A stretch of 46,651 nucleotides of DNA from Candidatus Woesearchaeota archaeon (GCA_964367085.1 CAYIWL010000001.1:1-46651), one strand, 5' to 3'; positions 27,020-46,651 are shown, numbered from the stretch's first letter. The notes: generated from the letters alone by a model not told the origin. Numbers and translations: made by a program.

Positions 27020-27405
27020 TATTGGATACCACGGCGATTATTGATTTAATTAGAGGAGACAAAAATATCGAAGAGAAAATTAAATACTTAAATGAAGACA
27101 ATGTTGCTTTCTTATTTACTTCTATCTCAGTTTTTGAAATCTGGCAGGGTGCTGAAGATATTAATAATGAGAAAAAACTGGAAAAAATTCACTTTTTTCT
27201 GAATTCTTTTGGCTCTTTTGGCTTTGATATTCCCTCTGCAGAAGAGGCAGGGTCTATTCATGCAAAACTAAAACTTGAAGGAGAAATTATTGATCCAGAA
27301 GACAGCATGATTGCGGGCATTGCCAAAACTAATAATGAAACTGTTTTGACCAAAAATATAAAGCACTTTTCCAGAATCCCTGGATTGAAAGTTGAATCTT
27401 ATTGA
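27016..27405 (+). CDS. vapC: PIN-domain toxin (VapC-like)
   Basis: The N-terminus MILDTTAIIDLIRGD is PIN-like, with later SISVFEI and PEDSMIAGIA motifs. The start was moved to ATG 27016. Confidence 0.7.
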   Translation: MILDTTAIIDLIRGDKNIEEKIKYLNEDNVAFLFTSISVFEIWQGAEDINNEKKLEKIHFFLNSFGSFGFDIPSAEEAGSIHAKLKLEGEIIDPEDSMIAGIAKTNNETVLTKNIKHFSRIPGLKVESY

Positions 27406-27969: not shown

Positions 27970-28074
27970 ACTTGGTAAGAAAACTTTTTGTTGTTTATTA
28001 ATTTTTCTTATCAGGTAAGAAGAGTAAATTTAAATAGAACTTTATCTTCCTAAAATAAGTTAGCTAAATTAAAT

Positions 28075-28119
28075 TAATAAGCTTAATAAGCTTAATAAGC
28101 TAGATAAGCTTAGTAAGCT
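28075..28119. repeat. Five tandem 9-bp units (TAATAAGCT x3, AGATAAGCT, TAGTAAGCT) with degenerate TAAG-containing flanks
   Basis: Read directly. Further related units occur at 28056-28063 (TAAGTTAG) and 28120-28134. The array ends 18 nt before ATG 28138. Confidence 0.85.
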
Positions 28120-28137
28120 AACTTAGGTAAGTTATTA

Positions 28138-28275
28138 ATGACGAGAGTAAACATAGAAATTGTGGATGAGCTGCACAAGAAGGCTAAGCTAGCTGCTGTT
28201 CTGGAAAATAAAACCTTGATAGAATTCATTAATGAAGCTGTTAAGGAAAAGGTTGAAAGAGGGAAGAAGAAATGA
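28138..28275 (+). CDS. Ribbon-helix-helix (CopG/Arc-like) small protein, 45 aa, absent from the ORF track
   Basis: Hand translation gives MTRVNIEIVDELHKKAKLAAVLENKTLIEFINEAVKEKVERGKKK, which fits a beta-strand plus two helices. It forms an ATGA overlap with 28272. Confidence 0.55.
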   Translation: MTRVNIEIVDELHKKAKLAAVLENKTLIEFINEAVKEKVERGKKK

Positions 28276-29072
28276 TTGAACCATTTAGAAAAGCGTTCGC
28301 GGAAAGAGGGATTGGGAAAAGAGGAGTGAGCATGATTTTTGTCATTGCTGGGATTGCTGTTGTTGTAATCGCTGCTTTAGTTGTATTCTTTACAAGCGAA
28401 GATGTGCAAGTTGGAAGGAGGATAAGCAGTACACAGGTTGAGAGCGTAAGAGAATATGTTGGAGGATGTATTAACGAACAATTAATAGAAAAGTTAAATG
28501 AGAGAAGGATGTATGGCGGGAGAAGCAGTCTTGACTTTAGGCCTTCTAACAATCGGAATCATCCATTTTATAATTATAATGTTTTGAATAAGCCTACGGA
28601 TAATCTTCTAGATATTAACATTATAGGACGAGAAATTGCTAGTGACATTGAGGATTATATTAAAAACGATGGTTGTTCTTTAGATATTTTTAAAGATAAT
28701 TTCGAGATTGAGGAGCGAAAAGATTTTGTTCATGCTGAAGTTGATATATCTGATGATTTTGTTGTTTTAGGTGTTAATTACCCTGTCATTGTTAAGAAAG
28801 GTGGATCTGAAATAAAATTTGAGGCTTATGACATTACGTTGGAAGATAATTTTGGAGGGGTTTATGGTCTTGTGAGAGGCATTTTAAATGGATTTGCTGG
28901 AGGCAGTACCGATGATATATCTGATTATTGCTTTAATTATCGCGATTTGTTCTGTTTTTCAGATCCTAGAAATGATTTTACTTTGATTAAGATAGTGAAT
29001 ATAAAAGATCTCCCCTCTCCTGGGAATGTAGTTGATCCTGGATTGGAGTTTTCGTTTGTTGTTTCAAGATGA
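28272..29072 (+). CDS. Pilin-like protein with a class III-type signal peptide, paralog of 43852..45837
   Basis: The N-terminus is FAERGIGKRG-VSMIFVIAGIAVVVIAALVVF. The downstream regions also align with 43852 (REYVGGCINEQL versus VSYTNNCIEKI, GG, a conserved Cys, and V.V.I.DD blocks). Confidence 0.55.
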   Translation: MIEPFRKAFAERGIGKRGVSMIFVIAGIAVVVIAALVVFFTSEDVQVGRRISSTQVESVREYVGGCINEQLIEKLNERRMYGGRSSLDFRPSNNRNHPFYNYNVLNKPTDNLLDINIIGREIASDIEDYIKNDGCSLDIFKDNFEIEERKDFVHAEVDISDDFVVLGVNYPVIVKKGGSEIKFEAYDITLEDNFGGVYGLVRGILNGFAGGSTDDISDYCFNYRDLFCFSDPRNDFTLIKIVNIKDLPSPGNVVDPGLEFSFVVSR

Positions 29073-31063
29073 AAAAATTAATAATGTTCGGACTCTTTGT
29101 AGTTTTGGTTAGTTTGTTCAGCCCTTTTGTTAGTTCTCAATCTACTGGTTTTTGCTGCTTAGAAAAAAGTGGCTATTGCAGTCCAAATAAAGCAGAAAAT
29201 GATTGTAAAGACTCTGGCGGAATAATCCAGGGAGTTGGTGCTTGTTATGATGCGAATGGCATCTCTCCTTATAACTCATGCAGTTTAAGTGCATGTACAT
29301 TTTTTAATGGAAAGTGTAGTATCCAGTCTGTTGCCCGTTGTGAATCCGTATTAAAAGGGACTGTTAACACCGAACTCACTGCTGAGCAATGTAGCGAGAT
29401 GAATATTCCTGTTAACGTTGGAGGATGTTGTATTTCTTCAGATGAAAGTTGTGGCATTTCTTCAAGGAATCAATGTGATGGGAATTTTTTTGAAAAGAAC
29501 TGCAACCAAGTTTCGGAATGTCAAGAGAAAGGTGGGGAAGTGAGAGAAGGATGTAGTGAAGATGGTAGAAAAGTGATTAAGACGAACCAGTTTGGCATTC
29601 GAGAAATTGAAGAGCTTCCTGAAGATGAAGCATGTGTGATTGAGGATGGTAAAATCAAAAGAAAATCAACTTCTTGTAAAGTCGGAGAAAAAACTAAAGT
29701 CATTACATTTAATCTAGACTCTGGGCAGTCGTTGTTTAAGGAAGAGCCTATTATAGAGAAAATGCTTGGTGCTTTTAAAGGAGAAGGAGTAAATGAAAGA
29801 AAGAATGGAGAGAGTTGGTGCATTGTCTATGGAAGTAGTGATGGGGTTAATTGGGACTTGTATCCTAAATCTGCTTTGGAAGAGGATGACGATTTAAGAA
29901 TAAAATATTCTGCTGGACAAAGACATTATATTTATACTTGCAAAAATGGAGATGTAACTCCTGAGCCAGGAGACTTGTTTAGAGGTAATGGGGGGGTTTG
30001 TTTTCAGAATGATGAGATAAGATATTATTTAATTGGAACCCCCGATGAATGGGCTGCCACTTGTGATTATAAAGAATTTGGATATGGGTATGGCAGTGAT
30101 AATGATAAAAAATCTATGGAAGAAAAGATTAGATATTCTACTGCGGTAGTTTCAGGACATAGAGTTAGACAAAAGAAAGAGGTTAATTCTGGAATTATCA
30201 ATTATCAGAATGGTTTTAGCCAGGCTAAATTAGTTGATAATTATGAATTCACTAATGGATGTAAGAAGGAAGATAAAAAACCAAGATATCCTGTTGGTAA
30301 CCAATTTTATGATGTAGCAGTTACTCCTGTTAATGCTCCTACAGTAAAATGTGGGCAGTGTGGAGAGGGATTTTGGAATAGATGCGGAAGTAAGGAATGT
30401 TATAAGCTTGGAGATTGCAGTTATGGAGGAAGAGAACTTTGGAGAGGGGTTTTTGGAGGGATTATTCCAGACTGTGTTAAAGGAGCAATTATTGCTGAAG
30501 TTGCTTACTTAACTGCTGGCAGTGCGGGATTGCATGATTTCGGCGGATGGGGAAGTGTTCTTGAGGGTGGGGGGGCTGGTGCTGGGTCTGGTGCTGGTTT
30601 ACCTACTGTCCCTACAGGACCTCCAGCAGTATCTCCCTCAACAACTCCTTTCGTTCCGTTGGAAGAAAGTGGATCTGTTGCTGGGAATGTTGCTCAAAGT
30701 GCTGCACAGAAAGCTAGTGAACAGGCTGCGTATATCGTTGTTAAAGAAGGAGGACAGTCTACTGCACAAAAAGTCACGAATTATCTTATTGTTGCAGGTA
30801 CTGCCAATAACCTTGTAAGGGCAACTTTTGATAATGACAGAAATATTAGAGATGCTCCTTCTGTTGATGCTAATGTTGTTGGCAATATAAATGGCGGAGT
30901 GGGTGTTGACATTACGGAAACTACGTCGGATAATAATGGAAATATTTGGGGCAAAACGGCTGATGGGAGATTTGTTATGCTAAACTCCCCTGATGGTACA
31001 AATCCTGCTAGACTAACACGTGTGCAGAATACTTTGTCTCCGGAGGATATAGAGACGGAATAG
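29069..31063 (+). CDS. Cys-rich secreted protein with a Gly/Pro-rich linker and an SH3b-like C-terminal domain
   Basis: It has a signal peptide (LIMFGLFVVLVSLFSPFVSSQS) and many Cys in the first 470 aa. A hydrophobic/Gly-rich stretch and a PTVPTGPPAVSPSTTP linker lie at about 30480-30660. The segment NLVRATFDNDRNIRDAPSVDANVVGNINGGVGVDI...GNIWGKTADGRFVML (about 30808-31010) is SH3_3-like. Confidence 0.55.
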   Translation: MKKLIMFGLFVVLVSLFSPFVSSQSTGFCCLEKSGYCSPNKAENDCKDSGGIIQGVGACYDANGISPYNSCSLSACTFFNGKCSIQSVARCESVLKGTVNTELTAEQCSEMNIPVNVGGCCISSDESCGISSRNQCDGNFFEKNCNQVSECQEKGGEVREGCSEDGRKVIKTNQFGIREIEELPEDEACVIEDGKIKRKSTSCKVGEKTKVITFNLDSGQSLFKEEPIIEKMLGAFKGEGVNERKNGESWCIVYGSSDGVNWDLYPKSALEEDDDLRIKYSAGQRHYIYTCKNGDVTPEPGDLFRGNGGVCFQNDEIRYYLIGTPDEWAATCDYKEFGYGYGSDNDKKSMEEKIRYSTAVVSGHRVRQKKEVNSGIINYQNGFSQAKLVDNYEFTNGCKKEDKKPRYPVGNQFYDVAVTPVNAPTVKCGQCGEGFWNRCGSKECYKLGDCSYGGRELWRGVFGGIIPDCVKGAIIAEVAYLTAGSAGLHDFGGWGSVLEGGGAGAGSGAGLPTVPTGPPAVSPSTTPFVPLEESGSVAGNVAQSAAQKASEQAAYIVVKEGGQSTAQKVTNYLIVAGTANNLVRATFDNDRNIRDAPSVDANVVGNINGGVGVDITETTSDNNGNIWGKTADGRFVMLNSPDGTNPARLTRVQNTLSPEDIETE

Positions 31064-31069
31064 GAAAAT

Positions 31070-34000
31070 ATGAAAAGATTTAATTTAAAATTGATCTGCA
31101 TTTTGATTTTAATAGTCTTAAGTAGCTTTATTAGTATTCATAATGTTTATAGTTATGCTGGTGTTGATGATGCTATTGTTCTTGGAATCGGGTGCATTGG
31201 CGGAATGTTTTTTAGTGGTGGAAGTTGTAGGTTATATCAGCCACCTAAACAAAATTATGATTGTGGAGTTTGCAATGATAAAGATAAATTTCTATTTGGC
31301 AAATGTACTGAATATCAATGCAGGGCTATTGGAAGAGACTGTGTTTTTGTCCCTAGCCTAAAGGATTCGAGTGAAGGTTTCTGCCTTAATAAAAGAGAGC
31401 AGGCTTTGGTCGAGAATGAAATAGTTTCTTGTGGTGTTTTGGATATAGCGACTATGAGGATTAAAGAAGATGTTAGAAATATTTATGATGATTCAGTCAG
31501 TTCAGAATCTCAAAGTGACCAGAGTGATGGTTCGGCTCCTCCCGACATTACAGGAAACGCTCTAAATCCGGGGGGTAGAACAAGAAGTGTTGCTGCATCT
31601 GAAAACAGGGTTTTGAAAGGTTGCGATTTGGGTGATTTAGCAATAAATAAATTGTATGGGTTTATACTTACTACGAACAGGCCAGTTGAATGCAGGTTTA
31701 GTACGGTCCCTAGAAAAGAGGATCTGTTTACAGTAGATTTGTTCGATGGTGTCACAGAAGGGATGTCTGATGAGGAAGCTTATAGGATAATCTTAGAAAA
31801 TGTAGGTAATAGTAAGGTGAAGTTATTTACTGAGTTTCCTAATGGCGTAGATCATTTATGGCCTATTCATTTTAATGTTGCCGAATGGACTTCAGATAAT
31901 ATTAAGGAATGTAATGATGGGGGTTGTACTTTTTATGCTAGATGTGCTGATTTTGATGGGAGCAATGTCATGGAGGAAGATTTCATATTTACCTTCAACA
32001 TAGTTGATCCTGTTGATGACACTGAAGGCCCTAAGATTATTGACTTCAATCCTGAAAACAGCAATGGTCTACAAAGATATACATTGCCTTTAAGTGCTAA
32101 TGGAAATTTAAATGTTGAATTTCGTGTTTCTGATGAAACTGGAATTAAGGAATGTAGGTATAGCAGGAACGATGGAGGATATGGACAAATGACTTTGATT
32201 AATGACTGTAAACCTAATACGGATGATACTTCGCAATTTATCCAGCAATGCAATGTTGCTTTGAGTGAGGTTAGAGAAGGAGATAATTTATTTTATTTCA
32301 ATTGCATGGACACTGATGAAAAAGAGAACATTAATCCTACGAATTATGTCTATAATGTTGTAGGAGCAAGCAGTTTGTCTTTACAGGTTAAATCTCCTTT
32401 GGATGGGAGCACAATTGATGGAGTTAGTGATATATTAGAAGTTGTGACTTCTGGTGGTACTGATGGAACTGCTGTTTGCAAATATAGTTATTCTAGAATC
32501 GGTGGCGGGATTTCTGGTACTAATCTTGTTTTTGCTTCAGATACTCCTGGTTCTGAGGATAAACGAGAACACAAACAAGAAATTAATTTCTTAACCGAAG
32601 ATGCTGATTATATCTTAATTGTTGATTGTGAAGATTTACATGATAACCAAAATAAAGCCAGTGCAACTGTAAACTTTAAATTTGAGAAATATGTTGCTCC
32701 TCCTGAAGGCGCTGTTGTTTGCGAAGTGGATAATACGTGTCCTTTATGCAGCAAGGATAAATATTGTGCTGAGCTTGAGGGAGAAAAATATCTGTGCAAT
32801 CCTACTACGGATGTAAGACAGAGTTGCACTAATGGAGTTTGCTCTGCTGCAAATTGCCCTAGCACAACTAAAACTTATGGAGCATCTTATTGTTCATTAG
32901 ACCCAACTCCATTATGCTTGAGTGATCAGGATAACGATGAAATCGAGGATGCTTTAGACTGCAATGATAAGGATACTCAAACTGGCAGAACAATTGGACA
33001 GTGTATAGAAGCTTTATGTGAAACCTGTTCTGAAAATTCTGAAAGTGCTGCCAATGATGGGAATTGTGTTAAGAAAAGAGGTTGTGTTATTGATTGCAAT
33101 AATAACTACTTTGACCAGAATCAAGCTATATGCTTAAGCGCTAAAGATAATGGATGCAAGTGGAGTGGAGATGAAAATAAATGCGGATATGATTGTGCTG
33201 AAGGATATAATGATGATGATAGTAATTCTGTTTGCGTTCCCGAAGGCATTGTTGAGATTAAAGGAGAATTACCAGTTGGTTGCGAACTAAGCGAAGTTAA
33301 ATGGTATGATCTGGAAAATGGTAGGCCCTATTCTAATGCAGTTTCTGTAGATGAAGATACTGAGATTGCTTTGAAAGTTAGAGGTAATGAGCAATGTAAA
33401 GATGCAGATATTGAAATTGATTTATATGATTACGAAGAATTTTTGGGAGAGAGTGTTTATGAGCAGATTACCTTTATGGGTTTCCCGAAAGTATTGAAAT
33501 TAGATGAAAGAAGTGCGGGGGGAGGGTATTACAAAGTTGCGCTATTGACCTTGCCTTGGCAGGGAGATGCAAATGAAGAATATGAAGACGAAGATCCAGA
33601 ATTAGTTGCTGCGTTTGGTGATGTATTCAGCGCTTCTTCAAATGAGAAAACTCAGTTAATAAAGATAAATAAGATAACCACCCCTCCGGGTGCAAAAGCT
33701 GGAGATGCTTGTGAAACTGCTGATCAATGCGATGGAGTGTACGGTCCTGCTGGGGCTTTAGGTTTGACTTGTGTTAAAACTGAACAGAAATGTCCAACTA
33801 CCACTCCTCCGCCAAATCCTGTTCTTTGCGGAAATAATAATTTAGATGAAGGAGAGAGTTGCGATGGAAGCTTGCGGGATGGAAAAACTTGCGACGACTT
33901 TGATAATCAAGTGGGAACTTTACAATGTGCAAGTGATTGTAATGGATTTGATACAAGCTCTTGTAGAAATCCTGATCAACCAAGCCCTGGTGGAGGCTGT

Positions 34001-37000
34001 ACTGTAAAATTTGGAGATGTTGTTTGTCCTGGAATTTACGGCTATGAAGGCCAAAATCTTAAATGCTTTGATAAAGGTGATAATTGTCCTGCTGTAACAA
34101 CTGGCCAACCTCCCGGTGGCGGCGGGGTACCTGGAACTGGCACATTAAACATTGGAGAGATATCTTCTTTAAAAGGGAATATTGTGATAATTACTAATAA
34201 AGATGCTGAGTGTGAAGTCTATAACAGTAGGTCTTATGTTAGTTCAGCTAAAATAGGCAACATGCATAAAGAACCTATTGGAAGCAACACCCATCATTCA
34301 TATTCTTACGATGTTGTCGGTACTTATGATACGTGGTGGGTTAAATGTACAGCTGGTAGCGAAGTGGCTGATAAAAAAGTTCCAACATTTACTGTTACTT
34401 CTGGAGATACAAATGGCAACAATGTTCCTTTAAGAATTGACAGAGTGTTTGTTACTGAAGATAAAGAAGTAGTTGTATGGACTTCTGGTGGTAGAGGGAA
34501 TGATGGAAGTGCTGATTGTGCAGTTTATAGTAGTGGTGCATTTACTTCTAAAATTGCGGATATGACCTCTTTTGACTTAGGAGATGTTGATACTCATAGT
34601 TATAGTCATAATACTCCCGGAACTTATAACGGATGGTATGTCAGATGTGAAGATAATGGCGATGTGAAAACTCAGGTTGTTCCTAGCTTTACCATTGTTG
34701 AGGGTCATGATAATGACCGTGATAATGATGGAAAATTAAATACCGAGGATAATTGTTCTGATATTGCCAACGCTGATCAAAAAGACTCTGACAATGACGG
34801 GGTGGGAGATATCTGCGATACTGGAGAAGATCTGACTCTACCCGTTGTAAATATAATTGCTCCTATTGATGGTGCTGAATTAAGACAAAGTGATATTAGT
34901 GTTAATGCCGAGTTTAGCGATGAGACCATAACTAATTGCGAGGCTAAATTAGATCTTGGAAGATTTATAGCAATGGATGATGACAATAGGAATAATGGTA
35001 TTGCTTCTTATTCATTTGCAGAGGTTAATGTTGGACAACATACTATCCAAGTTTGGTGCAGAGATAGTAGCGGAAAAATTGGAAAGGATGAAGTAACATT
35101 TATGGTAATAAGTAGGGATCCCGGTACAGATAATAATCCTCCTACAATTGAGATAGAATCTCCACAGGATAATGCAGTATTAAGACAAAATTATGTTGAT
35201 GTTAGTGTCAGATTTAGCGATGAGACCAATACTGAATGCTCTGCAAGACTAGATTTTGGAACTTTTACAAAGATGAATGGAGGAGGGACAACCAGTGGCA
35301 TTGCAACACATAAATTTACCAATCTGCAAGTTAGAGAGCAACCTTATGGCCTTTCGGTAAGGTGCGTTGATGGAAATAATAATCCTGTTGAGAGAAGCGT
35401 AAGATTTGCTGTTGAAAACGATAATCCTAATAGCGATCATAATAACCCCGTCGTTGAAATTCAATCACCTTTGAACAATGTAGAGTTAGAAGAAGGTGAT
35501 GTTGAAGTTATTGTTGCATTTTCTGATGAAACAACAACGACATGTACTTTAAGACTTGATTCTGGAAGAGTATTACAGATGCTTGATGATGGACTGACAA
35601 GCGGAGTTGCATATTATAAACTGCTTGGTATGAAGGCTAGACAAAATCCTTATAATTTGTTAGCAGAGTGTAAAGATAGCAATAATAATATCGGAAGAGA
35701 TAGCATTAATTTTGTTGTGAGGAAAGAAGGAAGTGGAACTGAACCAGAAGAAAACTCCATTGACGTCTTTATTGACTTACCAAGGCAAACAGACAGATTT
35801 TCTGTTGGGGATAGCTTGTTATTGAGTGTGAGGAGTAGTGAAAGAGCCGATTGCAGATATATCGATTATAATTTAAGAGAAACTAAACCGGTTTATGATG
35901 ATATGATTGCCTTGAATTCTGTAGATAGTTCAGGAAAGAATCATGCTTTAAGGATAATTTATTCTGGAGATAAAGAAGGATTTTATGTGATGTGCAAGAA
36001 TGATGCAGGATCAGGGTATAATTTTGTTGAGGTGATTAGAAAAGCAGATGATGTTGATAAGCCATTGGGGATAAAAACTGTGAGTTCTGCAAGGGGCAGG
36101 ATTGTTGTTGAGACTATTGGCGGCAAATCAGATGATGGAAGTGCAAGTTGCAGCGTCTATAACAGCATTTCTATGATAGATTCAAATAAAGTTAGTGATT
36201 TAAGGAGCTCTGTGTTAAATGCAAAAACTTTTGCTCATGCATATACCCATACAACTCCTGGAACTTATAATGGGTGGTATGTGAGATGCGCTGATGATGA
36301 AGATGCGAGAGATATCCAATCAATGTCGATCGATGAGTTTACTGTTACTCCTGGCGGCGTTATTGTGGCAGATAAACCTTTGGAAATTGATAATCTAAAC
36401 TCTGATAGGGGGAACATTATTGCTATAACTAGTGGTGGCGGGGATGATGATGGAAGCGCCGATTGTGACTTGTTTGACCATATCAATTTGAGAAATAAAA
36501 TTATTGATTTGGAGTCGGTTAATTTAGGAAGAACTTTTGCTCATACTTACATTCATATAACTCCTGGAACTTATAGTGGATGGTATGTGAGATGCGCTGA
36601 TGATGAGAATGCAGATAGGATTAGAGGAAGAACTGTTCCTACTTTTACAGTAAGAGAAGGTGATGTTCCTGGAGAAATGATAGATGTGAGGATAACATCT
36701 CCATTATCAAATGCTGAGTTTAGCTCTGGTGAAAATGTCTTGCTGAGTGTTTCAACTAATGAAGCTGTTGACTGCAGGTATTCTTCTTACACTCTTGGCG
36801 GAGGGGAATTGCCTAATTATGATAATATGGAAATATTGAATCCTTCTACACAAGCTAAAACAATTCATGCAAAACAAATTGTTTATTCTGATGATAATGG
36901 ATATTATGTGAAGTGTGTTAATAATCTTAAATCTGGGGATAAGTTCGTTGTTGTAAAGAAAAAAACTGGGCAGGAAGAATGTCCTTATGACTGCAGCAGA

Positions 37001-38896: not shown

Positions 38897-38913
38897 TCAT
38901 ACCATTATTATAG

Positions 38914-38943
38914 TACAAATATTTATAAACTAATTTGTATTAT
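38914..38943 (+). repeat. Copy 1 of a perfect 30-bp repeat, a palindrome-flanked TATA box with no annotated gene downstream
   Basis: The sequence is TACAAATATTTATAAACTAATTTGTATTAT, identical to 39014-39043 and exactly 100 bp upstream of it. The arms TACAAAT/ATTTGTA flank TTTATAAA. Confidence 0.9.
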
Positions 38944-39013
38944 ATATTGTTCTGTGGAAAACCAGAAAAGTTTGCAAATTGTTTTATATTGAGCAATTTT
39001 GTTATGAATATGA

Positions 39014-39043
39014 TACAAATATTTATAAACTAATTTGTATTAT
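39014..39043 (+). promoter_or_regulatory. Copy 2 of the 30-bp repeat, the likely promoter/operator of the 39053 ATPase gene
   Basis: TATA TTTATAAA at 39022-39029 lies 31 nt upstream of ATG 39053, inside 8-bp inverted arms ATACAAAT/ATTTGTAT. Confidence 0.5.
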
Positions 39044-39052
39044 GTTTTATGA

Positions 39053-40306
39053 ATGGCACAGATAACCAAAGATATTCTGATACTACAGAAGCGAGAACTG
39101 GATAAGCGAATTAAAGAAAAATATATCGACAGAGGAAACGAGCTAAAAGGGTTAAACAGCAATATTATCAAAGTTATTATCGGGCCTAGAAGGGCCGGAA
39201 AATCCTTCTTTGCCATTCATACTTTGGATAAATATGGAAATTTTGGCTATGTTAATTTTGACGACGAGAAACTAATTGAGACGGAAAACTATGATGAGGT
39301 AATAACTGCTGTGAACTCTGTTTATAATAATCCTAAAGTGATATTATTTGACGAGATCCAGAATCTTGCTAAATGGGAATTGTTTGTGAACCGGCTACAA
39401 AGGCAAGATTATAACTTAGTAATTACTGGGAGCAACGCCCAACTTCTGAGCAAAGAATTAGCTACACATTTAACTGGAAGGTGTTTTTTAACATATATCT
39501 TTCCATTTTCATTTAAGGAATATCTCCAATTTGAGGAGGAGCCAACAACTACGGAAATAAAAGAGAAATTGTCTAATTATCTAATTTATGGGGGGTATCC
39601 AGAGCCGCTGCTCAAAAATTTGGGCTATGGAGATTATTTATCAACTTTGTTTGGCTCAATAATCTATAAAGATATTGTGAAGAGGTATAAGATAAGGTCA
39701 GCAGACGAAATAGAAAATTTAGCCTTTTATCTCTTATCAAACATTGCAACTGAGTATTCTTATCATTCTTTAACGAAAATAAGTGGCATTAAAAGCTCGC
39801 ATACAATTCAAAAATATCTAGGATATTTGGAGGAAGCGCTTATTTTCTTTAGCTTGAACCGATTTTCTTATAAAGTTAAAGAGCAGCTTGCATCCAATAA
39901 AAAGATTTATTGCATTGATAACGGCTTTATCACGGCTAAGTCATTTAAATTAAGCCCGGATATTGGAAAACTTTATGAAAATCTAGTAGCTATTGAATTA
40001 AAGAAAAAAGAGATGAAGAATAAACTAAGTGTTTTTTATTGGAAAAATCCACAACAGGAAGAAGTAGATTTTGTACTTAAAAAAGGGGCAAAAGTTAAGC
40101 AGCTTATCCAAGTTTGCTTTAATATCAGCAATGTGAAAACGAAGGATAGGGAAATTCGCGCTTTGCTTAAGGCAAGCCGAGAGCTAAAATGCCAAGACCT
40201 TCTTATTATCACAGAAAATTATGATAATGAAAAAAATATTGAATGGTTCGGAATAAAAAGAAATATTAAGTTTTTACCTTTATGGAAATGGTTGCTTGAA
40301 AAATGA
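39053..40306 (+). CDS. AAA_14 plus DUF4143 family ATPase
   Basis: Walker A is IIGPRRAGKSFF and Walker B is VILFDEIQNL. GSNAQLL follows, then a DUF4143-like middle region and a C-terminal EEVDFVL motif. Confidence 0.75.
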   Translation: MAQITKDILILQKRELDKRIKEKYIDRGNELKGLNSNIIKVIIGPRRAGKSFFAIHTLDKYGNFGYVNFDDEKLIETENYDEVITAVNSVYNNPKVILFDEIQNLAKWELFVNRLQRQDYNLVITGSNAQLLSKELATHLTGRCFLTYIFPFSFKEYLQFEEEPTTTEIKEKLSNYLIYGGYPEPLLKNLGYGDYLSTLFGSIIYKDIVKRYKIRSADEIENLAFYLLSNIATEYSYHSLTKISGIKSSHTIQKYLGYLEEALIFFSLNRFSYKVKEQLASNKKIYCIDNGFITAKSFKLSPDIGKLYENLVAIELKKKEMKNKLSVFYWKNPQQEEVDFVLKKGAKVKQLIQVCFNISNVKTKDREIRALLKASRELKCQDLLIITENYDNEKNIEWFGIKRNIKFLPLWKWLLEK

Positions 40307-40797
40307 AACGGGGACAAACTCAGCAAATATTTGTATGGATTCTTGTTTTAGTCGTTGCTGTTTCAATTTTATTTTTTGGGATTAAGCTGATAAAGAAAAG
40401 CGAAGGGTTGAAAGATGAAGCTTTGATTGTGAGATTCTTTGATAATTTAGATAAAAAATTAAGCCAGTATTATTATCTCGATAAAGGCAGTTCGGGAGAA
40501 GAGAAGTTTTTATTGCCAAATGATGTGAAAGAGGTTTGCTTTATTAACTCCGATATTAGTGTTCTGGCCGAGTTTACAAATACTCAAGTTGATGAAGATA
40601 AAAAGGATTATTTTTTCCAGTTAAAAGATTTTAGTGATGTCTTTATCCTGCCTAATAATCTCTATCAAGGAAATAGGTACAATTTAACTATGGTATTTAC
40701 TTCTATAGACAACCCAAAATGCTTAAATGTTGCAAATGGAATCTTAACTGTTAATCTAGAGAATAAAGGGGTAACTGAAGGTGTTGAGATCAAATAA
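40303..40797 (+). CDS. Small pilin-like protein with a class III signal peptide
   Basis: The N-terminus is MKRG-QTQQIFVWILVLVVAVSILFFGI. It forms an ATGA overlap with the ATPase stop. Confidence 0.55.
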   Translation: MKRGQTQQIFVWILVLVVAVSILFFGIKLIKKSEGLKDEALIVRFFDNLDKKLSQYYYLDKGSSGEEKFLLPNDVKEVCFINSDISVLAEFTNTQVDEDKKDYFFQLKDFSDVFILPNNLYQGNRYNLTMVFTSIDNPKCLNVANGILTVNLENKGVTEGVEIK

Positions 40798-40939
40798 AAA
40801 TGGAAAAATGATGACGGATAAAGAACTAATTGTTTCAACGGAACTCCTAAATCAGAAAAGGACGAGCTGGTCGCAAAATGCGGCTACCTTAAATCACTTA
40901 GGATCACAAATTGTTATACTAGAAAATAGGTAGAAAGAT

Positions 40940-41836
40940 ATGACAAAAGAATTAACTGTACTAAATCAAGAAGATATTAAAAGTAAAATTTATACTATTC
41001 ATGGATTACCGGTAATGCTTGATGAAGACTTAGCAGAGCTTTATCAGGTTAAGACAGGAAGGTTGAATGAGCAAGTGAAAAGAAATATTGAGAGATTTCC
41101 TAGAGAATTTATGTTTCAATTAAATGAAAATGAATATAATATCTTGATATCGCAAATTGCGACTTCAAGTTCAAAGTGGGGAGGAAGAAGGAAACTGCCA
41201 TATGTTTTTACTGAACAAGGAGTAGCTATGCTTTCTGGGGTCCTAAATAGTAACATTGCGATAACGGTAAGTATTCAAATAATGAATGCTTTTGTGGCAA
41301 TGAGGAGATTTATTTCTCTTAATTCCCAATTATTCCAGAGAATGGATGTAATTGAGAAGAAGCAGATTGAAAGTGATAAAAGAATTGATAAGGTATTTGA
41401 TATAATTGAAAGTAAAAATATCAAACCCGATAAGGGAATATTTTTTAATGGACAGATTTTTGATGCGTATATGTTCTTTTCGGATATAATAAGAACTGCA
41501 GATAATTCAATTGTTCTAATTGATAACTACATTGATGATTCTGTTTTAACACTCTTTAATAAAAGAAAAAAGAATGTGAAAGTTACAATATTTACTAAAG
41601 AACTATCAAAGCAATTATCCTTAGATTTAAAAAAATATAATTCTCAATACCCTTCCATTGAAGTTAAAAAATTCAAGTTATCGCATGATCGGTTTATAAT
41701 AATCGATAATAAGAACGTATACCATTTTGGAGCATCATTAAAAGATTTGGGAAAAAAGTGGTTTGCATTTTCCAAGTTTGATAATGAGACATTTTTCTTA
41801 CTCGATAAGTTGAAAAAAGAGGTACTACATGAATAA
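40940..41836 (+). CDS. ORF6N (KilA-N-like) domain protein with a C-terminal HDRFIIID-containing domain
   Basis: Motifs are IYTIHGLPVMLDEDLAELYQVKTGRLNEQVKRNIERFPREFMFQL...GGRRKLPYVFTEQGVAMLSGVL, and at the C-terminus SHDRFIIIDNKNVYHFGASLKDLGKKWFAFSKF. Confidence 0.7.
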   Translation: MTKELTVLNQEDIKSKIYTIHGLPVMLDEDLAELYQVKTGRLNEQVKRNIERFPREFMFQLNENEYNILISQIATSSSKWGGRRKLPYVFTEQGVAMLSGVLNSNIAITVSIQIMNAFVAMRRFISLNSQLFQRMDVIEKKQIESDKRIDKVFDIIESKNIKPDKGIFFNGQIFDAYMFFSDIIRTADNSIVLIDNYIDDSVLTLFNKRKKNVKVTIFTKELSKQLSLDLKKYNSQYPSIEVKKFKLSHDRFIIIDNKNVYHFGASLKDLGKKWFAFSKFDNETFFLLDKLKKEVLHE

Positions 41837-42746
41837 AAGAGGAATGGCGATACCATTTGACTGGATGTTTTCTTTAGTTGCAGGAATCTTAATCTTTTCC
41901 TTTTTAATTTACTTTGCAGTGCAGCACACTGACTTGTTTGGAAAAATAACTACAAGGGTTGTTGCTGAAGAACTCGACGTTCTCTTTTCAGGTTATGAAA
42001 CCACCGAATCTAAAAGTGTTTTGGACTTTAAGAAAGAGGTTGAATTGAAATTTTCATGCAGCACAGGACAGGGACAGTCTTTTACAGTTAACAACAAAGA
42101 AGGAAAGAATTTGTGGGGGAAAATAATCTTTGCTCCTAAAGAAATTAAAAGCGACAAAGTAAATGTTGCTACGATGAGCTGGGATGTTCCTTTTAGGGCT
42201 GCTAACTTTATTTATTTGTGGGATAGGAAATACAATTTTGAGAACCCTCCCAACTTAGACATTTTGAGGTCTATTGATTCAACCAATGGAGATACAATTA
42301 TATTTAGATTTGTTGACCATGTAGATGAAAGTCCTGTATGTAGTGAGGATGGCAAAATAATCTATTATATAATTGAAGGGGGATATTATCATGGTTATGT
42401 CTGTTTCGCTAAAAACGAAGAAAGTGTTAAGTTCTTTGGAGAAGCAATGATGGTTGGTGCTATTTTTACCGACGATAGAGATGCGCTTATTTGTGCAAAT
42501 AAACTTGCAGTTAACAGATTAGAGATTATAAATGAAGTTTATAAAGAAAAGGCAAATAAACTTATAGAATCTGCAGATCAATTTAACTATCTGTGCAGCT
42601 ATGGCGAAGCCATGTACAATCCTAGTGCAGTAAACAATTTTGATCTAGGAAATGATCTTAACATCCAGTTTGGCTATGATGATGTTAACGTAGTTGAAAC
42701 TTCAAATGAAAATTTAATAAGGGAGGGGTGTCCAAGTGTCTACTAG
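41829..42746 (+). CDS. Pilin-like protein with a class III-type signal peptide
   Basis: The N-terminus is MNKRG-MAIPFDWMFSLVAGILIFSFLIYF. It overlaps the ORF6N gene by 8 nt. Confidence 0.5.
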   Translation: MNKRGMAIPFDWMFSLVAGILIFSFLIYFAVQHTDLFGKITTRVVAEELDVLFSGYETTESKSVLDFKKEVELKFSCSTGQGQSFTVNNKEGKNLWGKIIFAPKEIKSDKVNVATMSWDVPFRAANFIYLWDRKYNFENPPNLDILRSIDSTNGDTIIFRFVDHVDESPVCSEDGKIIYYIIEGGYYHGYVCFAKNEESVKFFGEAMMVGAIFTDDRDALICANKLAVNRLEIINEVYKEKANKLIESADQFNYLCSYGEAMYNPSAVNNFDLGNDLNIQFGYDDVNVVETSNENLIREGCPSVY

Positions 42747-43212
42747 GGGCCAACTGGAAATTGGAATCACAACAATGGTGTTAGTAGTATTCATTGTCTT
42801 GTTATTATTCAGCCTGATTCTCTATTTTAGGTTTACTTATATGGAAATAGAAGAGACTAAAACAACTTTATTCGATCAAAAATATAACAGCCTGTTAAGC
42901 GTAATAATTGGGATGCCCGAATTTAGATGTAGCAGAGGAGGGGTTGAAAGCGAATGCTTGGACGAAGTTAAATTAATGGTGTTTAAAGATGTCAGAGATA
43001 GTAATGATGACAATGATGAAAATAAAAAATATTATCAAAATCTATTCGGAAATGTGAAAGGAATCTGGGTTGAAATCCCCGGAGGTTCTCCTACTGAAAT
43101 TTATGGTTTGATTGGTTCTGATGGTGAGATTTATTCTGTCCCTGTTTCTGTATATAATCCTATTGAAAAAAAGTATAAAATTGGAATTTTAAAGATTAGT
43201 GGTGAAACATGA
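42736..43212 (+). CDS. Small pilin-like protein with a class III signal peptide
   Basis: A GTG start gives MSTRG-QLEIGITTMVLVVFIVLLLFSLILYF. It overlaps the upstream gene by 11 nt. Confidence 0.55.
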   Translation: MSTRGQLEIGITTMVLVVFIVLLLFSLILYFRFTYMEIEETKTTLFDQKYNSLLSVIIGMPEFRCSRGGVESECLDEVKLMVFKDVRDSNDDNDENKKYYQNLFGNVKGIWVEIPGGSPTEIYGLIGSDGEIYSVPVSVYNPIEKKYKIGILKISGET

Positions 43213-43661
43213 GGCGAGGGCAAACAGAAATTATCGGATTAATTGTTGTCGTTTTATTGCTAGTTTTCGCTTTGATATTCTTTGTCAAAGTCAAAAGCTC
43301 TCCAGATACCGATGACGAAAGTAGGCTGATCCGGTATAATTTGAGGGCAAACAGTGCTTTGAATGCTTTAATGAAATTTCATATTAAAAACGATGCAGAG
43401 AGAAGGCAGATGAAAGACGTTGTTCAAGAATGCGTAGATAAGTCGGATCCTAATTCTAACGAATGTGTTGATGCTAGCAGCATATTAAACCAAACTATCA
43501 AGGATGAAGTTCAGTTTGATGAAAAAGAATATTGGCTTGCGGTAATGACTGGGGCCAATGGCAAAATGATTTCTTCTGGAGCTGAATGCAAAAACAGCAT
43601 ACCAGCGGTTCCATTTTATTTAAGAAATGGTGGCAGAGTAGAGTTCAAGGTTTGTGCTTAG
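43209..43661 (+). CDS. Small pilin-like protein with a class III signal peptide
   Basis: The N-terminus is MRRG-QTEIIGLIVVVLLLVFALIFF. It forms an ATGA overlap with the upstream gene. Confidence 0.55.
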   Translation: MRRGQTEIIGLIVVVLLLVFALIFFVKVKSSPDTDDESRLIRYNLRANSALNALMKFHIKNDAERRQMKDVVQECVDKSDPNSNECVDASSILNQTIKDEVQFDEKEYWLAVMTGANGKMISSGAECKNSIPAVPFYLRNGGRVEFKVCA

Positions 43662-43693
43662 TTAGTAAGTTAGTAAGTTAGTAAGTTACTAAG
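43662..43693. repeat. Four tandem 8-bp units (TTAGTAAG x3, TTACTAAG), preceded by a partial TTAG
   Basis: Read directly. The array begins 1 nt after the stop of 43209..43661 and ends 5 nt before the TATA-like box at 43699. Confidence 0.9.
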
Positions 43694-43698
43694 AAAAC

Positions 43699-43706
43699 TT
43701 TATATA
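43699..43706 (+). promoter_or_regulatory. TATA-box-like TTTATATA for the RHH gene at 43730
   Basis: It lies 31 nt upstream of ATG 43730. Confidence 0.4.
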
Positions 43707-43729
43707 TTCTCGAAATAACTAGTAAAGCG

Positions 43730-43855
43730 ATGAAAAAGTACCTCCTTCTTGTTGAGGATGAGAAATTGTGGGAGAAATTCAAGGATTCTATTAAAAGAGA
43801 CATCAACACCGAGATAATTGAACTGATAAAAGAGAGGGCTAATAGAAAGAAATGA
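43730..43855 (+). CDS. Ribbon-helix-helix-like small protein, 41 aa, absent from the ORF track
   Basis: Hand translation gives MKKYLLLVEDEKLWEKFKDSIKRDINTEIIELIKERANRKK. It forms an ATGA overlap with 43852. The layout matches 28138..28275. Confidence 0.45.
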   Translation: MKKYLLLVEDEKLWEKFKDSIKRDINTEIIELIKERANRKK

Positions 43856-45837
43856 ACATTTTTGCAAAAAGAGGGATCGGGAAAAGAGGTCAGGTTACAT
43901 TATTCATAATTGCAGGCGTTGTAATCTTATTTGCTGCATTCCTTGTGGGGTATCTGCAGAATGAAAGCTTCAGGCAGAGAGTTGAAAGCCAGCTTTTTGG
44001 TGCTGCGGTTGTTCCCGAGCAGGCTAAAGGTGTTGTGAGCTATACAAATAATTGCATTGAAAAAATTGCTAGAGACGGGATTGATTTATTGGGGTTACAA
44101 GGAGGATATATTGAAATACCTCGAGGGCTTAGCAGTAGGCAGTATTTGCAAGCAGATCCTATAATGAAAGTTCCTTATTGGATTTATGGCAGTAAGAGAG
44201 AGATTCCTACTCTCCAAGAAATGGAATTACAATTGGAAAACTATGTTAATGAAAGAGCCAACATTGAGTGTGATTTTTTTGAGTTTCAAGAGTATGAATT
44301 CAGCAATGATGAGATATTTGTCGATGTTAAGATCTTAAATGATGGAGTTTTAGTTGATTTAGATTCTGAGCTAATTGTTGGCATTAAAGAAAGTAAGTAT
44401 TTTTTAAGAGATTATGTTGGCGTGTCTGTTCCAATTGATTTAATGTTTTTGTATGATCGGGCGATTGACATTGTTAATAGAGAAGCAAGATCTGGAAACA
44501 TTGGGAATGCTCCTCTTGAGTTTGCTACAATAGAGTTGATTGCAAGACATTCTAAAGATGAAGATTCTGAAATAAGTATTCCTCCTTTATACAAATTCGA
44601 TAACAAATGCAATCCTAAAAATTGGCTAATGACAGATGTAGCAGATAATGTAAAGGAGATTTTGAGTGATAATTTAAGATTTTTAAGAGTTGAAGGTGCA
44701 GATAATCTCGATTATGGAAATGACTACATTAATCTTGTCATTGATCGTGTTTTCACAAGAAATTACGATGTCAGAATAGATTTTAATTACAATCAAGAAT
44801 GGCCGTTATTTTTAGATATATATCCTAGAAATGGGGCGGTGTTAAAACCTAATACATTAAAAATCGGACTTCCTTTTCTTCCACTACTCTGCTTTACTAC
44901 ATACGATTTTAAGTATACTATAAGGTATCCATTAATGGTGAATCTAGAAAAGGATAATTACATATTCAGATTCCCTCTCGAGGTTTTTGTTTCTGATAAT
45001 TATGCTTGGAGAAACATTGAAGGTGAAAAGCCCGATATTGTTACAGATACGGGAACAAGGTTTTGCAGGGAAGAATGGAGATCGAGCAATGAGTTTAGCG
45101 TTGTCACTGTCGATGCTGTTACAATGCAACCTTTAGACGATGTTAATGTAATATATACCTGCGGCGGTGTTGATAATTGCGAGATTGGAAACACCAAATT
45201 TGAAAACGGCGAAGCTATTCTGAATGAAAAATTTCCATTGTGCTATAATGGAGAGATTAGGTTGAGCAAGGAGGGCTATGGTGAAGTTGGAATAGAGCTG
45301 ACTACTTTAGATAATCCTGGCGAAAGAAAATTAGGAGTTATGAAGCCGTTCACTGAAAAAGAAATTGAGTTGAAAATTCTAGAACTAGATAATGGCATTG
45401 TTAATGAAAGAAGTCTGGCCGAAAATGAAATGGCTAGCGTTCAGTTTAACATCCTCGAAGGAGATGTGATTAAAGATACAGTCGGAATTGTATTCGGAGA
45501 TGATGAAGTCGAAGATAAAGGAATCAATAAGATTAGTCTCTTGCCAGAACAGGAATATAATATTTTGATTAGTCTTGTCTTGGATGAAAAAATCGTTATC
45601 CCTATGAGCAAATATCAGGGAGTGGAAATTCCAGAGCAAGAGATAGATGATGTTTTGCTTGGCGGTGCAGATTTCGAGGATTATATTTATGACAAAGATT
45701 TGAAAGATAGTAGCAAAGTGATAGTTTATGCTCTTTCAGAAGGAGTTCCAAAAAATTATGAAGAATATATTGAGAGACTTGATGTTAAGGCAATGAGCGA
45801 TTTGCATAAAGAAAAACTTTTGCTGAGGTTTGAATGA
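43852..45837 (+). CDS. Large (661 aa) pilin-like protein with a class III signal peptide, paralog of 28272..29072
   Basis: The N-terminus is FAKRGIGKRG-QVTLFIIAGVVILFAAFLVG. The first 200 aa or so are collinear with 28272..29072. Confidence 0.55.
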   Translation: MNIFAKRGIGKRGQVTLFIIAGVVILFAAFLVGYLQNESFRQRVESQLFGAAVVPEQAKGVVSYTNNCIEKIARDGIDLLGLQGGYIEIPRGLSSRQYLQADPIMKVPYWIYGSKREIPTLQEMELQLENYVNERANIECDFFEFQEYEFSNDEIFVDVKILNDGVLVDLDSELIVGIKESKYFLRDYVGVSVPIDLMFLYDRAIDIVNREARSGNIGNAPLEFATIELIARHSKDEDSEISIPPLYKFDNKCNPKNWLMTDVADNVKEILSDNLRFLRVEGADNLDYGNDYINLVIDRVFTRNYDVRIDFNYNQEWPLFLDIYPRNGAVLKPNTLKIGLPFLPLLCFTTYDFKYTIRYPLMVNLEKDNYIFRFPLEVFVSDNYAWRNIEGEKPDIVTDTGTRFCREEWRSSNEFSVVTVDAVTMQPLDDVNVIYTCGGVDNCEIGNTKFENGEAILNEKFPLCYNGEIRLSKEGYGEVGIELTTLDNPGERKLGVMKPFTEKEIELKILELDNGIVNERSLAENEMASVQFNILEGDVIKDTVGIVFGDDEVEDKGINKISLLPEQEYNILISLVLDEKIVIPMSKYQGVEIPEQEIDDVLLGGADFEDYIYDKDLKDSSKVIVYALSEGVPKNYEEYIERLDVKAMSDLHKEKLLLRFE

Positions 45838-46651
45838 AAATGATGAAGTTAAAAGTAATTGCTTTAATGGTTATTGTTTTAATAATTGGAATTAATTTTA
45901 ATTTATCAGTTGTTCTAGCTCAAACTAGTGGTAGTACTGGCAGCCCGCAACTTGGGAATGCTTATGACAGTGACGGGGATAGAATATGCAACTTGGCAAG
46001 AGATCATTCTGATTATGCCGGATTAACTTCTACGCAGTTGAGTTGCACGGCTACTGATTATGGCGACTTGTGTCCAGGCACTGCCTTGGATGACAGGCCA
46101 GTTGGAAGCGGCGTAAGCAATAGCGGATGTGGACCGAGCCAGTCAGGAAGATTGATTAATTTCTGGAGCGTTTCCCGAGGGGAATTAACCCCTAAAACAT
46201 TAAAGGTTAATTGGGTTACAGACACTAGAAATGGTGTGCTTGCTTATCAAGAAGTAGATCTTATTAGGAATCCAACATTCTCTCAAAGTAATATTGAACT
46301 GAGAGACATAGGAATTAGTTGTGATTCCGGCGTTGGAATAGATAAAAGTGACGGGTATAAAGAAACTAGCAGGGGTTTTATATCTGATGTAGTAGCTGTT
46401 CGTACACCATTTGCTCAAGATGGCAGCAATGAAAAAAGGATGATCCAATTTAGAGTGAGACAGAGAAGTGACAACGAAATTCGGCCTAAAAGTTTGATTT
46501 CTCCTTCAGAAGGAGGAGTAGACGAGATAAGAACAACATGTAAAATAAGAATCGATCAATGCGAAAAAAATGCTGCTGGAAATTGCATTCCAATTTATCC
46601 TGTTGAACAAGATGAGATTGACTTTTTTATTCCAATTGATGCAAGAATTAT
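45834..46651 (+). CDS. Secreted protein, 5' part only (open to the window end), absent from the ORF track
   Basis: ATG 45834 forms an ATGA overlap with the previous stop. The frame stays open for 272 codons to nt 46651. It has a signal peptide (MKMMKLKVIALMVIVLIIGINFNLSVVLAQTSG) and an acidic DSDGDRIC motif. Confidence 0.6.
   Translation, partial: MKMMKLKVIALMVIVLIIGINFNLSVVLAQTSGSTGSPQLGNAYDSDGDRICNLARDHSDYAGLTSTQLSCTATDYGDLCPGTALDDRPVGSGVSNSGCGPSQSGRLINFWSVSRGELTPKTLKVNWVTDTRNGVLAYQEVDLIRNPTFSQSNIELRDIGISCDSGVGIDKSDGYKETSRGFISDVVAVRTPFAQDGSNEKRMIQFRVRQRSDNEIRPKSLISPSEGGVDEIRTTCKIRIDQCEKNAAGNCIPIYPVEQDEIDFFIPIDARI

Follow-up and report, generated by a model that had tools for sequence, protein, structure and literature searches.

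A conserved cell-surface operon with prepilin-like and giant secreted proteins in Woesearchaeota-type DPANN archaea

We analysed a contig of 46,651 nucleotides from a Candidatus Woesearchaeota archaeon (GCA_964367085.1, CAYIWL010000001.1:1-46651; hereafter, the window), which ends in a locus of 13 genes, most of them chained by overlaps of 4-11 bp (Table 1). This locus is a conserved, largely uncharacterised cell-surface operon of Woesearchaeota-type DPANN archaea. It encodes six proteins with prepilin-like N-termini (A266, p164, p305, p158, p150, and B661), two tiny proteins resembling ribbon-helix-helix (RHH) regulators (RHH1 and RHH2), and large secreted proteins (Cys664, Giant2608, and one cut by the contig end). 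An initial annotation had described the region as a surface-appendage and adhesion locus. Its observations were confirmed and its interpretation was supported in part. Two genes inside the locus (39053-40306 and 40940-41836) are no part of the apparatus. The link to SLT lytic transglycosylases, the paralogy of two modules, the insertion of candidate defence genes, and the conserved promoter and repeat elements at the RHH genes were all missing from it.

Results

The six N-termini highlighted by the initial annotation were all recovered, both by translating the window and by a window-wide scan. Each of the six open reading frames (ORFs) displays the class III layout, with a short basic leader ending in [KR]G followed by about 20 hydrophobic residues, and this N-terminal stretch is the single hydrophobic segment of each protein. 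The combination of [KR]G and a hydrophobic stretch was present in 6 of the 13 locus genes vs. 1 of the 45 other ORFs (Fisher p = 2.6e-4); that sole extra match, at 2533, has the appearance of a Sec-like signal.

For motif conservation, homolog sets were gathered by whole-protein similarity and not selected on the motif. Within the family of the 661-aa protein B661, 43 of 49 members presented [KR]G/Q (the slash marks the predicted cleavage site); among the others, three have SG/Q, KA/Q or KS/Q, and another comes from a gene call that lacks its N-terminal end. For p158, the motif was found in all complete members (26/26). Across the homolog sets, the residue at -1 is Gly, rarely Ala or Ser, the residue at +1 is Gln, and the leader ranges from 4 to 37 aa. 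Motif and conservation together support the class III (prepilin-type) signal-peptide layout that had been proposed. In the window itself, Gln is at +1 in four of the six ORFs (p164, p158, p150, and B661), and it is also found in the A266 homologs of two related loci (L002 and L003). A preference for Gln in EppA substrates is documented in Methanococcus, where EppA cleaves EpdB and EpdC at KG/QV and requires Gln at +1 (PMC4371748, PMC3875500). A Glu occupies position +3 of both p158 and p150 and position +4 of several homologs of p164. We did not find the +5 Glu, and B661, A266, and p305 have no Glu in this position range. A plain signal anchor would not usually carry an acidic residue early in its hydrophobic segment, comparable to the +5 Glu found in type IV pilins.

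When the four small families were compared with hhalign, they were similar only at the N-terminus, with the best values for p164/p150 (85%) and p158/p150 (80%, over about 75 residues). Homology among them, or with the pilin-like proteins of the type IV filament (TFF) loci discussed below, is not claimed here, since hhalign support is too low.

At the level of gene order, p164-p305-p158-p150 stand beside genes of the A266/B661 family in at least 16 related loci, so the gene order is conserved in relatives. Homologs of the 661-aa protein were labelled as Candidatus Woesearchaeota archaeon or as Nanoarchaeota in GTDB, and the detailed synteny set included three contigs retrieved through these homologs and ten GTDB genomes. 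In the relatives, module 1 contains RHH1, A266, a Cys-rich protein (~620-664 aa), and a giant protein (1387-2608 aa). Then come p164, p305, p158, and p150 as a middle block, and RHH2, B661, a protein of 1000-1230 aa, and a membrane protein as module 2. Downstream, the neighbours LSM, ribosomal S8e, and TFIIB are common to the relatives, including the distant L016. The conservation of gene order and chromosomal neighbours, even in a distant relative, indicates that the locus is inherited vertically and keeps its place in the chromosome. In the window, consecutive genes overlap by 4 bp (ATGA) at 28272, 29069, 40303, 43209, 43852, and 45834, by 8 bp at 41829, and by 11 bp at 42736, which bears out all eight overlaps initially listed.

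The membrane protein that closes module 2 lies beyond the window end. It is polytopic (~255-275 aa, about six predicted transmembrane (TM) segments) and always comes after the SLT/giant gene (e.g., L001:15573-16373, L002:15273-16031, and L010:14934-15701). It has no Pfam match, and its invariant residues are only F, W, and W. As a candidate divergent prepilin peptidase it was rejected, since it has neither a conserved Asp pair nor a GxGD motif.

The two modules are related to each other. Residues 8-207 of A266 aligned to residues 3-210 of B661 with an hhalign probability of 99.2% (E 9e-20). Since A266 is thus paralogous to the first ~200 residues of B661, we describe the locus as two paralogous modules around four small genes, each module combining an RHH gene with one family member (A266 or B661) and at least one large Sec-type protein. 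The same logic is kept without the small genes in L014, where each of two B661-like genes is followed by large proteins. The family is very large: a profile search retrieved 10,007 representatives of 50%-identity clusters at E <= 0.001, a number that falls to 2,836 when E <= 1e-30 is required, and none of the profile and sequence searches gave it a Pfam, NCBIfam or PDB match.

A metagenome scan with the DNA pattern for [KR]GQVTxFII retrieved at least 120 loci. Family members were found in 111 of the 120 matches listed, in short (~250-290 aa) and long (>=550 aa) forms. Among these matches, the ORF that directly follows on the same strand (-60 to +200 bp) is 100 aa or longer for 76 of the 83 evaluable members (92%), with a median length of 658 aa, and 74 of those 76 ORFs have a hydrophobic N-terminus.

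The ORF at 45834 (272 aa), which goes beyond the initial account of the locus, appears to be the N-terminus of a giant SLT-family protein cut by the contig end; the window stops before any SLT domain position. Its identity with the N-terminal part of a 1214-aa protein in L001 is 62%, its counterparts follow B661 in all relatives, and orthologs are 62-64% identical over the 272 aa. The C-terminus of the L001 protein contains an SLT domain (PF01464, E 9e-14), and the catalytic ES...G[LI]MQ motif, in the forms ITQES...GLMQ or ITVES...GIMQ, is conserved in L001, L003, L008, and L013. The orthologous protein in the more distant L009, L010, and L012 lacks this motif. Judged by its orthologs, the ORF can be assigned to the family of giant, murein-like transglycosylases of Pacearchaeota and Woesearchaeota. 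Such proteins were already reported in these lineages (fam00969, Module 98) and proposed to act on the walls of bacterial hosts (Castelle et al. 2021, PMC8204110).

At the structural level, we modelled p158 and B661 with AlphaFold2 (AF2), and both presented a long N-terminal helix and a globular domain. The p158 model (29-sequence alignment; predicted local distance difference test (pLDDT) 83.8) has a continuous helix of 57 residues (3-59), and a small alpha/beta head, in which a hairpin with its conserved Cys pair is followed by two short helices and a sheet of four strands. Thus, its predicted topology is that of a pilin-like 'lollipop'. In the B661 model (pLDDT 85.9), helices 11-36 and 38-49 precede an alpha/beta domain (~56-380) and three beta-sandwich domains. 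With Foldseek, the latter resemble the CnaB/transthyretin-like modules of Gram-positive pilins and the S-layer stalk SlaB (8qox_B, E 3e-6).

The two tiny RHH genes exist as ORFs and are conserved. The RHH assignment itself is weak for RHH1 (ParD E 0.0025 and HicB N-terminal E 0.0037, both below cut-off), and RHH2 has no Pfam match. RHH1 is 84% identical in L002 and L003, with hidden Markov model matches in L040, L048, and L123; RHH2 is 66-88% identical across loci. Repeat arrays similar to the one before RHH1 were found 5' of RHH1 in L002, L040, and L123, and the window contains three TAAG[CT]T-type clusters vs. 0.015 expected per shuffled window. Upstream of RHH2, TTAGTAAG-type repeats (43658-43693) abut AAGAAAACTTTATATA (43691-43706). 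The latter resembles a TFB-recognition element (BRE) plus TATA box, and its TATA (43699-43706) precedes the ATG of RHH2 by 23 nt.

The block hardly varies among ten loci (the window, L001, L002, L004, L007-L010, L012, and L023), always 23-27 nt before the RHH2 start, with the repeat periodicity and TTTATATA unchanged. The B661 proteins of these loci are only 36-64% identical to that of the window, so the non-coding block is far better conserved than the adjoining proteins. It is probably an operator together with a BRE/TATA promoter for a leaderless mRNA; an element only 23 nt 5' of the ATG implies a leaderless or near-leaderless RHH2 transcript. The TAAG[CT]T-type repeats are plausible candidates for RHH operators.

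The third repeat cluster of the window (3482-3504, three copies of ATAAGTTT) lies before a T/A-rich TATA-like stretch and just after two paralogous secreted proteins of ~315 aa (1580-2530 and 2533-3480; weak CARDB match). It may be part of the same RHH regulon.

The features of the locus are listed in Table 1. Giant2608 has the expected length of 2608 aa and is Cys-rich (4.4%); its N- and C-terminal ends are conserved and its middle is variable. The Big_7 match is solid (E 2e-15), and the call of thrombospondin type 3 (TSP3) repeats stays sub-threshold (TSP_3 E 1e-4). The SH3b call on the 664-aa protein Cys664 is weak as well (SH3_3 E 0.016, under the Pfam cut-off); orthologs of this protein were found in L001, L002, and L007. 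The public gene call for p158 from the same contig (P0057; NCBI, ENA) is 123 aa long and starts at an internal Met; therefore, the GTG-initiated prepilin-like N-terminus is missing from it.

Table 1. Features of the surface locus at the 3' end of the window (positions counted from its first nucleotide). N-termini are window translations.
Feature	Position	Strand	Remarks
Tandem array of six TAAGCT/TAAGTT units	28077..28134	+	Immediately before the start codon of RHH1; candidate RHH operator
RHH1, 45-aa ribbon-helix-helix-like protein	28138..28275	+	ATGA overlap with A266
A266, short form of the [KR]G/Q(V)-T-x-F-I-I family	28272..29072	+	Prepilin-like N-terminus GKRG/VSMIFVIAG; one N-terminal TM segment
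Cys664, Sec-signal secreted protein, 30 Cys	29069..31063	+	No C-terminal anchor; weak SH3_3 tail
Giant2608, Sec signal, 115 Cys	31070..38896	+	Big_7 immunoglobulin (Ig) domains; TSP3-like repeats
AAA_14/DUF4143 ATPase	39053..40306	+	Insertion; PADLOC candidate defence gene PDC-S01; not a PilB-type ATPase
p164, small prepilin-like protein	40303..40797	+	N-terminus MKRG/QTQQIFVW
ORF6N-domain protein	40940..41836	+	Insertion; PADLOC candidate defence gene PDC-S05
p305, larger prepilin-like protein (305 aa)	41829..42746	+	N-terminus NKRG/MAIPFDW
p158, small prepilin-like protein, GTG start	42736..43212	+	N-terminus STRG/QLEIGIT; AF2 model
p150, small prepilin-like protein	43209..43661	+	N-terminus MRRG/QTEIIGL
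Conserved putative promoter region, TTAGTAAG-type repeats and AAGAAAACTTTATATA	43658..43706	+	Conserved in ten loci
RHH2, 41 aa	43730..43855	+	ATGA overlap with B661
B661, long-form family member	43852..45837	+	Prepilin-like N-terminus GKRG/QVTLFII; alpha/beta domain and three beta-sandwich domains
Putative giant SLT-family protein, N-terminal 272 aa	45834..46651	+	Sec signal; runs off the contig end

The two genes that interrupt the locus are candidate defence insertions, not machinery. The first matched AAA_14/DUF4143 (Pfam, E 9e-31 and 4e-23) and PDC-S01 (PADLOC, E 1.5e-105), and the second matched ORF6N (Pfam, E 7e-35) and PDC-S05 (PADLOC, E 6e-126). Both are absent from most relatives and common only to L008, at the same positions. 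The AAA_14/DUF4143 gene in particular is absent from L002, L003, L007, and L010, and its place in L001 is taken by another gene, of the ATPase_2/DUF234 type. In L015, an AAA_14/DUF4143 gene comes after a B661-like gene. The stop codons of both inserted genes overlap the starts of the adjoining pilin-like genes.

Outside the locus, the remaining genes of the window include archaeal housekeeping genes (PCNA, aIF2-alpha, TFS, PAC2, and TrmB). Directly upstream, the locus is bordered by a toxin-antitoxin pair of the VapB/PIN type (26795-27405) together with a nucleotidyltransferase of the Pol-beta type (27409-27969, minus strand). At a greater distance on this side, an ATPase_2/AAA_14 protein (21364-23034, minus strand) contains a winged helix-turn-helix domain, and a DDE transposase of the IS240 type is encoded at 23141-24004. 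At 12409-13875 and 13811-15106, two large membrane proteins, polytopic and lacking a Pfam match, are located beside two family 2 glycosyltransferases (GT2; 15103-15738 and 16521-17765), and the whole stretch 12409-17765 may be a surface-glycan or protein-glycosylation cluster.

Discussion

We give an even chance to a model in which the six proteins are prepilin-peptidase substrates, and a TFF system encoded in trans assembles them. The four small proteins would be minor-pilin-like, and A266 and B661 would present giant adhesins and a transglycosylase to a bacterial host. Expression would be controlled by the RHH proteins, binding the TAAG[CT]T-type repeats at their own promoters and acting on both units. 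By their sequences, Cys664, Giant2608, and the SLT protein have Sec signals for export and carry no membrane anchor. The six [KR]G proteins would be inserted through their single N-terminal hydrophobic helix, and an EppA/PibD-type peptidase encoded elsewhere would cut their leaders; we infer this removal because Gly at -1 and Gln at +1 are conserved and leader length is variable. A TFF ATPase and platform of the two-platform type, also encoded elsewhere, would then assemble a short filament or tip complex. In it, p164, p305, p158, and p150 would act like a minor-pilin priming or tip set, with A266 and B661 as modular adaptors holding their cognate giant proteins. The Cys-rich Ig/TSP3 proteins would bind the host surface, and the SLT domain would cleave the glycan strands of the host peptidoglycan, following the host-wall idea of Castelle et al. 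(2021). In favour of the model count the enrichment and conservation of the motif, the helix-and-head models of p158 and B661, the recurrent gene order, the pairing of family members with large secreted ORFs, the TFF genes beside a family member in L066 together with their many ATPase relatives and similar pilin N-termini, the scattered pilin loci of the Epd system, and the SLT domain with its catalytic motif in the closest orthologs.

A close parallel is the Epd pili of Methanococcus maripaludis, an archaeal TFF of 'system 1' with EppA-processed pilins (EpdA-E). Both systems have a short leader ending in Gly, Gln at +1 (KG/QV in Epd), and several minor pilin-like genes per operon, some of them large. 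The Epd pilin genes are apart from the ATPase and two platform genes, as would be the case here, and the TFF loci L066 and L138 also have two platforms. The locus differs from Epd in having no PF04021/DUF361 match, no +5 Glu (Glu at +3 or +4, or absent), and no peptidase gene. Its ectodomains are unrelated, and it adds giant Cys-rich secreted proteins, a lytic transglycosylase, and RHH genes with putative repeat operators.

The initial annotation also likened the locus to bacterial minor-pilin and tip-adhesin sets, such as GspH-I-J-K of the type II secretion system, FimU-PilVWXE with PilY1 of type IVa pili, and ComGD-G. Gene number, size pattern, and context agree with it: there are four small co-transcribed pilin-like genes, one about twice the size of the others, and large Sec-exported, adhesin-like non-pilin proteins adjoin them. 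A priming or tip role and adhesin presentation are proposed in both cases. However, no homology of sequence or fold was detected with Pfam, NCBIfam or Foldseek, the signal is of the archaeal type, and major pilin and machinery are not adjacent, so the likeness is an analogy only. Like B661, modular type IV pilins (e.g., PilB of Streptococcus sanguinis) and the large minor pilins of archaea (arCOG02911, 250-550 aa) combine a class III signal, a helix, and bulky domains. Unlike them, B661 has a first ectodomain of alpha/beta type without a match; no homology was detected, and its incorporation into a filament would be hypothetical.

Several findings weigh against assembly by a TFF system, and they concern the signal, the folds, and the machinery. 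As for the signal, curated pilin models (Pfam, NCBIfam) accepted none of the six ORFs. The best score was that of p150 against TIGR02537 (arch_flag_Nterm), with 14.6 bits vs. a cut-off of 20; the other five had no match, and none of the six matched the Pfam Class_IIIsignal family (PF04021, DUF361). As a control, the G/VSPVIAT-type pilins of the TFF loci L138 and L066 pass TIGR02537 (37.6, 21.9, and 23.8 bits). In the same loci, the pilin-like proteins with Gln, Ser or Trp at +1 fail it as well, and thus this negative is only partly informative. Similarity by hhalign to the L066/L138 pilin-like proteins was weak and N-terminal only (L138 169-aa protein/B661, 61%; T174/p164, 46%).

Regarding the folds, the B661 and p158 family profiles gave no PDB match. 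The best Foldseek match of the p158 model in the PDB reached E 0.11, with no pilin among the matches. Thus, the expected long helix and head were predicted for p158, and the head was not matched to a solved pilin; since pilin heads are diverse, this mismatch is weak negative evidence. B661 has 661 aa, a very large size for a subunit of a filament, and the surface-layer (S-layer) anchor SlaB is among its Foldseek matches.

Regarding the machinery, we confirmed with Pfam scans the lack of T2SSE, T2SSF, and Peptidase_A24 in the window. No TFF ATPase, platform or peptidase was found within 10 kb in any close relative, and the locus encodes no obvious major pilin. Two by-eye guesses in the window, a signal peptidase I at 19762-20406 and a small peptidase at 24415-24834, were without Pfam support. 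Type IV pili components have also been stated to be missing in DPANN genomes (bioRxiv 10.1101/2020.05.14.094862). In M. maripaludis, pilins, peptidase, and ATPase/platform genes are spread over at least four separate loci (PMC3875500), and therefore the missing nearby machinery is less remarkable than the initial annotation implied.

TFF genes adjoin a family member in one of the about 120 loci listed (974 kb around members), the archaeal L066, and such rarity counts against the model too. There, a TFF operon is directly preceded, on one strand, by a distant, short-form member of the family and a secreted protein of 747 aa. The operon includes two pilin-like genes (one passing TIGR02537), an intein-containing T2SSE, two T2SSF, and two pilin-like genes. 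With its intein removed, this ATPase matched at least 7994 related cluster representatives at E <= 1e-30. The best 120 of these are all 73-83% identical to it, an unusual conservation, and the named organisms among the best relatives are mostly Pacearchaeota or Nanoarchaeota. L138, a typical TFF locus, presents an adhesin-like protein, five pilin-like genes, an ATPase, two platform genes, and two pilin-like genes. N-termini of the pilin-like proteins in TFF loci resemble those of the window (KRG/QFYL, KGG/QTWIE, and KRG/SHLEIV).

From these relatives, TFF machinery is widespread in the clade, which is at odds with its stated absence from DPANN. The two-platform layout of L066 and L138 fits 'system 1', which a 2026 preprint placed in methanogens and DPANN (10.64898/2026.04.22.720090). 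L068 was discarded as a TFF locus, being a bacterial contig with a chance pattern match. An 820-aa ORF in L010 and L011 was discarded as a TFF ATPase; it reads as a TFIIB-type gene, most likely matched by phmmer through a shared intein, and the L010 copy probably carries one, judging from that match. Among DPANN contigs, inteins were observed in the TFF ATPase (intein and LAGLIDADG domains) and in RtcB (two inteins); the ORFs or regions concerned are L066:4576-7590 (-), L010:17740-20202 (+), and L138:16100-20410 (+).

A second explanation, tentative and clearly less probable than the first, is a membrane-anchored surface complex without a motor. The six N-termini would be type II (N-in, C-out) signal anchors, A266 and B661 would be stalks tethering the giant proteins as in the SlaB/SlaA pair, and the four small proteins with the downstream polytopic membrane protein would form the base. 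It accounts well for the pairing of 92% of the evaluable family members with a large secreted protein, for giant proteins without an anchor of their own, and for the conservation of the polytopic protein at the cluster end. It also fits the N-terminal TM segment and three stalk-like domains of B661, with their Foldseek matches to SlaB (8qox_B) and to Gram-positive stalk pilins. That TFF genes almost never adjoin family loci, and that matches to pilin profiles and folds were not found, speak for it too.

The comparison with the SlaA/SlaB S-layer of Sulfolobales holds in that an anchored beta-sandwich stalk is paired with a very large secreted partner. However, SlaB is anchored by a C-terminal TM segment, at the opposite end to the N-terminal anchor here, and the giants of the locus are hypervariable and Cys-rich, one partner being an enzyme. 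This explanation also does not account for the fact that five or six families with unrelated ectodomains keep an almost invariant small residue at -1 and Gln at +1 after leaders of 4-37 aa, or for the acidic residue at the start of the hydrophobic segment, the continuous 57-residue helix of p158, and the arrangement of L066.

A bolder idea, which we consider unlikely, is a TFF-independent organelle in which the six prepilin-like proteins and the polytopic protein would form a base of their own, and the A266/B661 family would be a dedicated class of adaptors, each docking one giant secreted effector or adhesin. Such a modular organelle would let the archaeon grapple a bacterium and cut its wall, and would define the cross-domain episymbiosis of Woesearchaeota and Pacearchaeota.

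Also of low probability is a bindosome-like scaffold, as proposed for the class III-signal sugar-binding proteins of Sulfolobus together with BasABC. In that case, the six proteins would be genuine prepilin-peptidase substrates that build no extended pilus, and a pseudopilus-like scaffold at the membrane would position enzymes and adhesins. The class III motif supports it as much as it supports trans-served TFF assembly, and the large, globular ectodomains and the lack of a major pilin gene in the locus agree with it. The p158-BasB match (NCBIfam, E 0.06) would be in line with it, but is far under the cut-off and not significant. In Sulfolobus, the bindosome locus itself includes an ATPase and a platform (BasE and BasF), whereas neither type is present here.

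Finally, a mobile, viral or defence island with no host-interaction apparatus, which the PDC-S01 and PDC-S05 candidates inside the locus and the VapBC pair, nucleotidyltransferase, and IS240-type transposase upstream could suggest, is very improbable: we reject such an origin because the chromosomal neighbours (LSM, S8e, and TFIIB) and core order are the same in distant relatives, while neither GC content nor skew shows a break at the flanks, most relatives lack the defence-type genes, and no integrase or repeat boundary was seen.

Conclusions

Part of what we describe was already known: the motif, the logic of scattered loci, and the SLT protein family. As far as our searches show, the literature contains no description of the architecture of the operon, of the putative adaptor family or of the regulatory element. 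The main text of Castelle et al. (2021, PMC8204110) presents a protein family and a co-occurrence module, and the words 'pili' and 'pilin' are absent from it. Our SLT protein is alike in lineages and in its inferred role against bacterial walls; the orthologous proteins without the SLT motif in L009, L010, and L012 are a difference. Beyond that family, we add a conserved operon with prepilin-like proteins, putative adaptors, and candidate RHH regulators.

The locus connects the giant lytic transglycosylases noted earlier with prepilin-like proteins in one conserved operon, and adds a candidate regulator/operator pair and a very large, uncharacterised family of putative adaptors. The TFF ATPase and two platform genes in contigs labelled as Pacearchaeota or Nanoarchaeota bear on the contradiction in the literature over type IV pili in DPANN. 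To our knowledge, no host of Woesearchaeota or Pacearchaeota has been identified experimentally. The locus is a testable candidate for how these tiny, abundant DPANN archaea grip and breach a bacterial host and, if the TFF link is true, it would be an archaeal counterpart of the pilus-mediated episymbiosis in bacteria from the candidate phyla radiation (CPR).

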